A stretch of DNA of 64,000 nt from Clostridia bacterium (GTDB lineage Bacteria > Bacillota > Clostridia > Christensenellales > QALW01): positions 14,769 to 78,768 of the forward strand of contig JAZNSH010000014.1 of assembly GCA_045591115.1 (NCBI GenBank), written 5' to 3'. Made by a program: the position numbers and the translations under genes. Within the stretch, counting starts at the first letter, position 1, and each line of letters begins with the position of its first letter. Shown here in pieces: positions 2,755-46,034 of this stretch. Under the pieces are notes generated by a model. It did not search any database. It had not been told where the DNA came from and worked only from the letters and a program-made list of their open reading frames with translations.

Positions 2755-3005
2755 AAAAAAATAAACCCGCAAAGATACATTATATCTTCGCGGGATGATC
2801 AACAAATTTTTTGACCACGGTACCACCCGTATTGCTCAAATTTTGAGCCACTCAATAAGGTTCAAACAAACCCTTGTTCTGTTACGGGAACTCCCGAAGC
2901 CTCTTACTGAAATTCCGAGGCCCTGCTCCGATACGAGACAACGAATATACCGCCTATCGTTTTACACCAACCAACGACTCTCTAAAAGCGCAAAATACAT
3001 ACGTT
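2755..3005 (-). promoter_or_regulatory. T-box riboswitch leader (tRNA-sensing antiterminator) upstream of the LeuA-like gene
   Basis: The minus strand carries AGAGAG (2978-2983), GGTGTAAAA, and the T-box sequence AATACGGGTGGTACCGTGG (2815-2828 region). A terminator hairpin CCCGCGAAGATATAATGTATCTTTGCGGG (2766-2794) plus T-run follows, then the RBS AAGGAGG and the ATG at 2740. Tentative specifier CUC (Leu) at 2937-2935. Confidence 0.75.
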
Positions 3006-3161
3006 TAATATCCTCATAGCATTTGCCATTTAATTTTTTTATAATAATATAACAAAATGCCCCATCTGTCAAACGATTTTTATAATATTTTTCTAAAAAT
3101 TTCTCATTTTTTCTATGAATATGAGATAAAAAGTTGTATAATACAAAAAGGAGATGATTTT

Positions 3162-40165: not shown

Positions 40166-40396
40166 ACCGCGGAAAGATCCGCGGTCAGTCTGCTGGCAAA
40201 GTCAGCAGACTGTCAGAGTTCGAGAAACCCTTGCAAGCCAAGGCGCTGAACTTGCAAAAAAGGGAGTTTACATAGACGTAAATGACCGCATTTTGCAAGT
40301 GAAATGCAACGACGGAAATAGCACCCTGCAAAAATTTTGCAGGGTGCTATGTTTGTAAGGGTTTGTCAGTGCTCTGACCGCGGAAAGATCCGCGGT
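40166..40396 (+). mobile_element. Element B copy 1: a 191-bp non-coding insertion (40186-40376) flanked by a duplicated 20-bp terminator stem-loop
   Basis: ACCGCGGAAAGATCCGCGGT occurs at 40166-40185 and again at 40377-40396; only the second copy is followed by the T-tract. The insert is near-identical to 57558-57748. Confidence 0.8.
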
Positions 40397-40435: not shown

Positions 40436-40873
40436 TTATTTCATTGCAACTTCGCAAGCAACTGCAACTGCAACGGACATACCAACCATGGGGTTGTTAC
40501 CTGCGCCGATTAAGCCCATCTTCTCAACGTGAGCAGGAACTGAAGATGAACCTGCAAACTGAGCGTCACCGTGCATACGGCCCATTGTATCGGTCATACC
40601 GTAGGAAGCGGGACCTGCAGCAGCGTTATCGGGGTGAAGTGTTCTGCCTGTGCCGCCACCGGAAGCAACTGAGAAATACTTAACACCGTTTTCGATAGCC
40701 CACTTCTTATAGGTACCTGCAACGAAAGGCTTTTCTTTACCCTGAATAGGTGTAATATTATAAAGCCAATTCTTGATAGGTGCAGAGAAGTCAAGACCAA
40801 GGAAACGCGCACGCTTCATTTCAGGTGCAAAGCTGGGTACGTTTGTTGCAGCAATACCGCCTTCGCCCTGCAT
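40436..40873 (-). pseudogene. Displaced 3' fragment of a GGGtGRT-family gene fused to unrelated upstream sequence (chimeric ORF)
   Basis: 40440-40734 aligns to 45040-45334 at a constant offset of 4600, with 8 mismatches in 295 bp and no indels. The region upstream of VAGTYKKW has no similarity to the intact protein. Confidence 0.8.
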
Positions 40874-45032: not shown

Positions 45033-46034
45033 TTAGCCCTTCATTGCAACTTCGCAAGCAACTGCAACTGCAACGGACATACCAACCATGGGGTTGTTAC
45101 CTGCGCCGATTAAGCCCATCATCTCTACGTGAGCAGGAACTGAAGATGAGCCTGCAAACTGAGCGTCACCGTGCATACGACCCATTGTATCGGTCATACC
45201 GTAGGATGCGGGACCTGCAGCAGCGTTATCGGGGTGAAGTGTTCTGCCTGTGCCGCCACCGGAAGCAACTGAGAAATACTTAACACCGTTCTCAATAGCC
45301 CACTTCTTGTAGGTACCTGCAACGGGATGCTGGAAACGTGTGGGGTTAGTTGAGTTACCGGTAATGGAAACACCAACGTTTTCTTTTCTCATAATAGCAA
45401 CGCCTTCAGAAACGTCGTTAGCGCCATAGCACTTAACCTTTGCTCTGTCGCCTGTTGAGAAAGCCTTTTCATATACAGTTTCAAGCTCGCCTGTATAGTA
45501 ATCATACTTTGTTTCAACATAAGTGAAGCCGTTGATTCTTGAAATGATATAAGCGGCATCCTTACCTAAACCGTTAAGAATAACGCGAAGAGGATTCTTA
45601 CGAACCTTATTTGCGTTAAGAGCGATCTTAATTGCGCCTTCAGCAGCAGCAAAGCTTTCGTGACCTGCAAGGAAGCAGAAGCACTCTGTTTCTTCACTTA
45701 AAAGCATTGATGCAAGGTTACCGTGACCAAGACCAACCTTTCTCTGATCGGCAACTGATCCGGGGATACAGAAAGCCTGAAGTGCTACACCGATTTCCTT
45801 TGCGGCATCAGCAGCAGTTTTGCAACCTTTTTTAAGTGCAAGAGCAGCACCTAAAGTATATGCCCAGCAAGCATTCTCAAATGCGATGGGCTGAGTTTCT
45901 CTAACGATTGTTTCAGCGTCAACGCCCTTACTAAGAGCGAATTCCTTTGCTTCATCAAGATCCTTAAAGCCATACTCCTTAAGGACAACGTTGATCTGAT
46001 CAATTCTTCTTGAATAACTTTCAAAATTTGCCAT
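45033..46034 (-). CDS. GGGtGRT-family conserved protein of unknown function
   Basis: 333 aa. Contains the name-giving SGGGTGRT motif (VASGGGTGRTLHPDN). Confidence 0.8.
   Translation of the reverse strand: MANFESYSRRIDQINVVLKEYGFKDLDEAKEFALSKGVDAETIVRETQPIAFENACWAYTLGAALALKKGCKTAADAAKEIGVALQAFCIPGSVADQRKVGLGHGNLASMLLSEETECFCFLAGHESFAAAEGAIKIALNANKVRKNPLRVILNGLGKDAAYIISRINGFTYVETKYDYYTGELETVYEKAFSTGDRAKVKCYGANDVSEGVAIMRKENVGVSITGNSTNPTRFQHPVAGTYKKWAIENGVKYFSVASGGGTGRTLHPDNAAAGPASYGMTDTMGRMHGDAQFAGSSSVPAHVEMMGLIGAGNNPMVGMSVAVAVACEVAMKG

Follow-up and report, generated by a model that had tools for sequence, protein, structure and literature searches.

The Correia/NEMIS, ERIC, RUP and REPIN/BIME repeats are bounded by short fixed-length duplications (e.g. 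TA) or by none, and their partner transposases are known or inferred. To our knowledge, IS1272-type elements, which delete the stem-loop, are the only ones known to be directed into terminators by structure. IS1272 and TnSha1, members of the IS1182 family from staphylococci, insert into terminator hairpins in a structure-directed manner (PMC5678879, PMC4923244). Duplication of a whole stem-loop has been drawn only as the hypothetical pathway b in PMC5678879. In Helitrons and IS91-type elements, a subterminal 3' hairpin acts as an end-definition signal (PMC4778049).

Here we analysed a MITE-like dispersed repeat of 191 bp with the termini 5'-CAG...CTG-3', which we call element B, and an internal palindrome of it, which we call H. 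Two copies of the element lie in the window, that is, the whole stretch of 64,000 nucleotides under analysis (Table 1). The source genome (G000 in the coordinates below) holds about 60 copies (some 59 left ends and 65 right ends); its assembly comprises 2.69 Mb in 103 contigs, and many element-B ends coincide with contig ends. Of 20 sister species, six carry 15-25 matches each and a seventh carries one, while 0 of 40 genomes outside the genus showed a real match. Among the genomes searched, element B is confined to one genus of gut Clostridia.

Neither an ORF nor an internal promoter-like site was found inside the element. In the whole window, Rfam 15 at the gathering score gave no family matching element B, and at permissive E-values the element and eight long variants returned only chance-level matches. 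RsmY, SAM and snoRNA identities were rejected, their Rfam scores being far under threshold. The sole gathering-score match in the window was a T-box leader at 2788-3026 on the - strand (105.7 bits). Terminal inverted repeats are present: the left CAGAGTTCGAGAAACCCTTGCAAG pairs with the right end, whose reverse complement is CAGAGCACTGACAAACCCYTRCAAA, in an interrupted stem of 22 bp. Element B is thus small, non-coding and multi-copy, with inverted-repeat ends and a target-site duplication relative to the empty site, as is characteristic of MITEs. As a separate observation, the gene end downstream of copy 1 (window 40440-40724) is repeated about 4.6 kb further on, at 45040-45324 (285 bp, 97% identity); this repeat probably corresponds to the duplicated gene-end scars of the preliminary description.

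Table 1. Positions of element B, its parts and its flanking hairpins in the window.
Feature	Position	Strand	Sequence or remark
Element B, copy 1 (191 bp, 5'-CAG...CTG-3')	40186..40376	+	without ORF or promoter-like site
Left duplicated host terminator hairpin, copy 1	40166..40185	+	ACCGCGGAAAGATCCGCGGT; A-tract kept; called as a - strand terminator
Terminal 5' hairpin (12-bp stem, 3-nt loop)	40186..40212	+	5' foot is the left end of the element
Left inverted repeat	40214..40240	+	CAGAGTTCGAGAAACCCTTGCAAGCC; pairs with the right end; fixed G.U pairs on the + strand
Middle long hairpin	40243..40308	+	same fold, other sequences in sister subfamilies
H, copy 1	40319..40349	+	internal palindrome of element B; class TAGCACCC; TAGCACCCTGCAAAA-A-TTTTGCAGGGTGCTA
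Right end (27 nt)	40350..40376	+	TGTTTGTAAGGGTTTGTCAGTGCTCTG; inverted copy of the left repeat; with H, the 58-nt solo module
Right duplicated terminator hairpin, copy 1	40377..40396	+	T-tract kept; scored as a + strand terminator
Element B, copy 2 (191 bp)	57558..57748	+	3 differences from copy 1 over ~133 positions 5' of H
Left duplicated terminator hairpin, copy 2 (27 bp)	57531..57557	+	empty site in G013 (locus L090)
H, copy 2	57691..57721	+	internal palindrome of element B; class CAAACCCC; CAAACCCCTGCAAAA-T-TTTTGCAGGGGTTTG
Right duplicated terminator hairpin, copy 2	57749..57775	+	T-tract directly after

The right end of element B forms the 3' foot of a large fold closed by both inverted repeats. 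Overall, 98.1% of the cells of the consensus fold are paired, and 22 of its 66 pairs are changed on both sides; the stem of the terminal 5' hairpin covaries too (pairs 3/25, 4/24 and 5/23). The middle hairpin exists in three unrelated sequence versions of one fold and is separated from H by a linker closing in GGAAA. It accepts nested inserts of 200-450 nt, which give rise to variants of 390-650 nt. Folding favours the + strand over the - strand in all 47 copies (mean difference 17.6 kcal/mol) because the long-range stems bear fixed G.U pairs, and since these pairs are common by descent, the strand bias amounts to one observation, not 47. Unlike the long-range stems, both H and the terminal 5' hairpin are Watson-Crick perfect on either strand.

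Several derivatives of the element were seen. The long variants contain nested non-coding modules (L078, G000:C16:1-420; L077 and L080, G000:C47; L081, G000:C77:10850-11450) with inverted-repeat ends of their own, for example TATACTATAGCGCG...CGCGTGCTATAGTAT and CGAAGGGAATCGAACCC...GGGTTCGGCTCCCTTCG. A variant of about 470 nt, present in at least 10 copies, is the source of many contig breaks. There are also two mini derivatives: one of 96 nt (G000:C89, - strand, end 17003), in which the left repeat runs straight into the palindrome and the hairpin duplication, of 23 bp, is still matched, and one of 38 nt (G000:C20:9605-9642), which is made up of the terminal hairpin and the final 13 nt and has a different terminator on either side.

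Well-resolved copies of element B are all flanked on both sides by a host stem-loop of 16-32 bp, repeated in direct orientation and different from one element copy to the next, with an A-run before the left hairpin and a T-run after the right one. The resolved target stems are mutually unrelated in sequence; what they have in common is the form, namely A-tract, hairpin and T-tract. Matched flanking hairpins of 16-32 bp were found in about 31-34 of 48 copies. In sister species, the locus of copy 1 is empty in G011 and G012 (L099, L100), and that of copy 2 is empty in G013; each of these sites has a single hairpin and no element, in flanks up to 99% identical to the filled loci. From these one-hairpin empty sites, it follows that element B is a mobile insertion, placed at the feet of terminator stem-loops, and that its target-site duplication is the entire terminator stem-loop. 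The length of the duplication is set by the target hairpin, which is atypical for a MITE.

About a quarter to a third of the copies have flanking hairpins that do not match, e.g. G000:C78:23009-23205 and loci L042, L044, L046, L047 and L051. For one of them, the partner hairpin lies on a different contig (C78 left with C39 right). Such cases reflect either inter-copy recombination or chimeric joins of short-read MAGs across the 191-bp repeat. The two host hairpins of one duplication are sometimes unlike each other, in that the loop is inverted (TTTTT vs AAAAA) or a stem pair has changed in a compensated way (C-G to T-A), as at L045 (G011:C26:24188-24520), G000:C8:7354-7550, G000:C78:46834-47025 and G000:C20:1482-1673. 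These differences suggest template switching or an ongoing constraint on both copies.

Between the two window copies, the arms of H differ at four positions (arm positions 1, 3, 4 and 5). All four differences are compensated on the opposite arm, and both copies are perfect palindromes with 15-bp arms. The predicted folding energy of H is -22.8 kcal/mol for copy 1 and -21.6 kcal/mol for copy 2, and it falls to -14.8 and -13.2 kcal/mol in arm-swapped chimeras of the two, a loss of 7-9 kcal/mol. The compensated changes and the perfect stems had been pointed out in the preliminary description and are borne out by the window sequence and by folding. The near-identity of the first ~130 nt, also claimed there, was found as well, with 3 differences over the ~133 positions 5' of H.

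The covariation persisted when the comparison was widened. In 40 distinct full-length copies from 7 species, the H helix is 98.5% paired as against 86.3% in column shuffles, with 0 of 500 shuffles reaching the observed value, and 70 cells are changed on both sides as against 20.9 expected. Structures slid by 1-3 columns are merely 36-58% paired. The five outer pairs each take 2-4 Watson-Crick states (135/168: UA24 CG13 UG3; 137/166: AU23 GC11 UA6; 138/165: AU25 CG10 UA3; 139/164: CG21 AU15 GC2 UA1; 140/163: CG35 UA5), which means at least nine compensated switches, and an additional compensated pair (CCATGC/GCATGG) is private to one copy (C77:11391). Perfect stems occur in 117 of 148 copies, and the other 31 have mismatches.

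The stem sequences fall into at least 10 classes, including CAAACCCC, CAAATCCC, TAGCACCC, TAATGCCC, TATACCCC, TAAAATCC, TAATCTCC, TAAACCCC and CAACCCCACTGTAA. Some of them are partly species-specific (TATACCCC in G015, TAAAATCC in G005/G016). The inner stem CC(C)TGCAA is conserved and the central base switches between A and T within classes, while variability within the element peaks in the outer 7 pairs (pi 0.335 vs 0.05-0.13 elsewhere, in one subfamily). Divergent relatives carry unrelated hairpins, TACCCCC/GGGGGTA or TAACACC/GGTGTTA, at the position of H, between GGAAA and TG(T/G)TTG. Taken together, H is a real stem-loop of which the shape is conserved and the sequence is not. A requirement for H as paired copies of the transposase-binding motif of the inverted repeats was considered and rejected, because in most classes the outer stem of H is unlike the repeats and because the hairpins of the divergent relatives lack the CCTGCAA core.

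The distribution of the classes bears on how the two window copies came to differ. Classes TAGCACCC and CAAACCCC are each found on two or three middle-domain backgrounds, and arm-swapped recombinant hairpins exist (C68:248). The shuffling of classes against middle domains and the arm-swapped recombinants indicate that the window copies are recombinants of old classes. Thus the contrast between 3 changes in ~130 nt and 8 in H is no sign of fast compensation: no other part of the element varies as much as the outer stem, and old classes plus recombination explain the contrast instead.

At which level does the constraint act? Differences between propagated classes are all compensated. Twelve stem haplotypes occur at two or more loci, 11 of them perfect and one with a single U.G, and the haplotypes with a non-wobble mismatch are all singletons (20 of 20). 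Singleton substitutions in the H stem are uncompensated and as dense as elsewhere (0.36 per column vs 0.31 overall), which means that individual loci are not under selection. If selection is at work, its targets are the copied lineages rather than the resident copies. The preliminary description had argued for selection on the structure and against neutral decay. That is supported for lineages of the element, whose propagated classes are paired, and is not supported for resident copies, whose private changes go uncompensated. Similarly, stem changes left uncompensated at the element-wide rate, which it had named as contrary evidence, were seen for private substitutions and not between propagated classes. 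The lack of per-locus constraint on H argues against a local benefit, such as terminating host transcripts, and favours a cis role in mobility. By itself, the lack of mismatched classes among the propagated ones has little statistical power, because 21% of copies are imperfect and 8-12 clean classes would arise by chance with p ~0.15. A strand bias among private transitions in H was also considered and rejected (11 G.U vs 7 A.C, not significant).

Covariation alone cannot separate selection from palindrome-specific mutation. H might have no function at all, its symmetry being produced by template switching or arm-to-arm conversion together with inter-copy recombination; we consider this improbable. 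Such processes would account for the loop inversions in duplicated host hairpins (L045, C8:7354, C78:46834-47025) and for the compensated double changes within one duplication (C20:1482, C78:46834-47025). The A/T flips of the central base, the private compensated pair, the arm-swapped recombinants, the shuffling of classes against middle subfamilies and the high variability of the outer stem also agree with it. However, the 31 copies with unresolved mismatches imply that symmetrisation is slow relative to copy age, and the different hairpins at the exact position of H between conserved flanks call for retention of a hairpin, not mere symmetry. In addition, an unselected 31-bp palindrome should often be lost, yet it is kept in every multi-copy variant, including those of 390-650 nt. 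A general caution follows for other repeat families: copies may covary because the propagating lineage is under selection, even where resident copies are left to neutral decay.

Besides its place inside the 191-bp element, H marks the boundary of a smaller unit. Together with the 27-nt right end, it stands alone as a 58-nt module at six loci of the source genome and at two in other MAGs. These solo modules always start exactly at the 5' foot of H, after an A-rich stretch, and mostly adjoin another terminator, lying just upstream of it. The 5' foot of H is therefore an element boundary at at least eight loci. One solo locus is empty in G011 and G012, which reveals a clean 58-nt insertion at the 5' foot of a terminator without hairpin duplication. 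Alternatively, the solo modules could derive from full copies by deletions that end at hairpin feet. After spo0A in the source genome (G000:C73:36267-36340), a solo H with a decayed right end is the only hairpin. The 3' hairpin of spo0A (L101-L109) has a wholly different sequence in almost every species of the genus, and the coding ends are 78-87% identical; terminator stem-loops seem to turn over by replacement.

The spo0A locus also speaks for another explanation, which we regard as unlikely: H would be an intrinsic, probably bidirectional, terminator or an RNA-stabilising hairpin, with the outer pairs serving as an extension of the A-tract and U-tract. The only hairpin available to spo0A is a solo H where sister species have unrelated terminators, and solo copies of H stand directly after stop codons. 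H is built accordingly: GGAAA forms an A-rich flank, the GC-rich stem folds at -22 to -25 kcal/mol, the loop has 1-3 nt and UGUUUG comes next; if the basal A-U pairs open, the tail reads UUUGUGUUUG, and UUUGUUUCC on the reverse strand. Perfect Watson-Crick pairing on both strands is expected of a bidirectional terminator, and the better folding of the + strand suggests that a single-stranded form is relevant. Nevertheless, a consensus terminator scan called both flanking duplicated hairpins and did not call H, of which the basal stem is A/U-rich. Termination by H is also dispensable, because in each direction the distal duplicated host hairpin keeps its T-tract. The U-rich tail belongs to the conserved right inverted repeat, so that its conservation is not independent evidence. 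Furthermore, a host terminator would be at odds with the lack of purifying selection on the stem in resident copies and with the random orientation of element B relative to its neighbour genes (among 22 copies, the upstream gene end is co-oriented in 17 and the downstream gene end convergent in 17). Between a recognition hairpin and a terminator, we lean towards the former on anatomical grounds, since the 5' foot of H is a boundary.

An IS1182-family IS resident in the source genome (L085, G000:C54:1690-3418, with G000:C95:1-150) encodes a 509-aa transposase with DUF772 and DDE_Tnp_1_6. Further ends of this family lie at G000:C37:10442, C59:1976, C34:118040, C72:99-142 and C75:90-139. The IS has at least four copies, and each of its ends is a 31-nt hairpin, AGGCTGTCTCAC-TAACTAA-GTGAGGCAGCCT. 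In one element-B copy, the centre of H has been replaced by this IS. Its other sites are always between an A-run and a T-run, a context that looks like stem-loop replacement as in IS1272. H-like hairpins serve, moreover, as the duplicated target for other copies of element B. In the cell, H behaves as a hairpin target as well as an end.

As the driver of element B, the resident IS was rejected because the two do not co-occur across the genus: only G000 and G005 have the IS1182-type transposase, three other genomes have fragments of it, and the element-B-rich G011, G013, G015 and G018 lack it. Its 12-nt terminal arm matches the element-B arm at 9 of 12 positions with one gap, and the IS ends of G005 are no nearer to those of element B. 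An IS with element-B ends (CAGTCTGCTGAC...GTCAGTGCTCTG) was found in none of the source genome, the 20 sister genomes and the 79 public loci, though the genomes searched are short-read MAGs, which are prone to dropping repeats and make the absence of a partner weak evidence. Pairing left and right ends within 6 kb in the source genome yielded only elements of 68-470 bp; left ends lacking right ends were truncations or, in one case, an IS insertion. Self-BLAST of the ORFs of the source genome gave no multi-copy ORFs, and the 79 public loci bearing the right end gave no long element.

The same searches weigh on a further explanation, that H is the relic terminator of a lost transposase gene and that its classes descend from different autonomous parents. 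Many IS carry the terminator of the transposase gene just inside one end, and H, 27 nt inside the right end with its U-rich tail pointing outward, matches that place; the partial species specificity of classes such as TATACCCC and TAAAATCC would fit separate parents. We find this origin very improbable, given that no autonomous parent turned up in any genome or locus searched, that the longer variants hold nested non-coding modules rather than ORF remnants, and that a single genome has the same H classes on more than one background. Three other assignments, to IS200/IS605, to Helitron/IS91 elements and to group II introns, were rejected on account of the long target duplication. An IS200/IS605-derived PATE was likewise rejected, since element B has long duplications and variable left flanks as opposed to no duplication and a fixed tetra- or pentanucleotide.

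The explanation that we tentatively prefer, at a little under even chances, is that H is a cis-acting, structure-only mobility hairpin of a non-autonomous element, which also resembles a bidirectional terminator. Under this explanation, the machinery of element B would read hairpin geometry, not sequence, at both donor and target. The mover would probably be a DDE-type enzyme working on extruded hairpins or cruciforms, as has been proposed for the IS1182 family. A shape-reading activity of this kind might join the element ends to the feet of extruded stem-loops, and the nearest model is the hypothetical 5'-foot pathway b of Wan et al. H would be one of the hairpins that define a movable unit. 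Lineages with a paired H would be copied, their outer stem drifting through paired states, while resident copies decay. Because of its resemblance to a bidirectional intrinsic terminator, H would be the kind of object that element B targets, and it may replace the terminator of a gene.

A more far-reaching form of the idea, which we hold to be doubtful, is that hairpin feet are the only address for the element's own ends and for its targets, with an undescribed activity that cuts or switches strands at the bases of stem-loops. If so, that activity would be either a new transposase clade or a template-switching route of replication. A mobile unit would then be specified by any perfect hairpin that precedes the 27-nt right end: the terminal hairpin would give the 191-bp element and H the 58-nt module. 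Insertion at an extruded terminator would leave two copies of the entire stem-loop. The compensated changes of H would be the trace of a transposon end that is read purely by shape, and the fast turnover of terminators between sister species, e.g. after spo0A, would be driven by such elements.

The element-B family offers dozens of natural hairpin variants in which only the pairing is kept. Its nested mobile unit starting at H and its clean pairs of filled and empty sites provide material for testing a shape-defined transposon end. The family also allows one to ask whether the terminators and 3' UTRs of abundant gut Clostridia are reshaped by elements of this kind.

Compared with known systems, element B shares several features with the small repeats. 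Like Correia/NEMIS, ERIC, RUP and REPIN/BIME, it is small, ORF-less, multi-copy, intergenic, self-complementary and probably co-transcribed into 3' UTRs; it differs from them in its hairpin-length duplication and in that no partner was found. H resembles the Helitron/IS91 hairpin as a palindrome some tens of nucleotides inside one end, with the structure kept and the sequence free. By contrast, Helitron/IS91 elements make no target duplication and use fixed di- or tetranucleotide sites, whereas element B has long duplications and inverted-repeat ends. With bidirectional intrinsic terminators, H has in common an A-rich flank, a GC-rich perfect stem, a short loop, a U-rich flank and solo occurrence after stop codons; it departs from them in lying within a mobile element, in its interrupted U-tract (UGUUUG) and in not being called by the consensus scan. 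As for IS1272/TnSha1, the targets of these elements and of element B alike are stem-loops (terminators for the most part), entered in either orientation and irrespective of primary sequence, and the ends of both are able to form hairpins. The co-resident IS1182-family IS behaves like IS1272 and struck H itself. Unlike IS1272, element B encodes nothing and has no co-occurring IS1182-type transposase. IS1272 deletes or replaces the stem-loop without any duplication, whereas element B duplicates the whole stem-loop.
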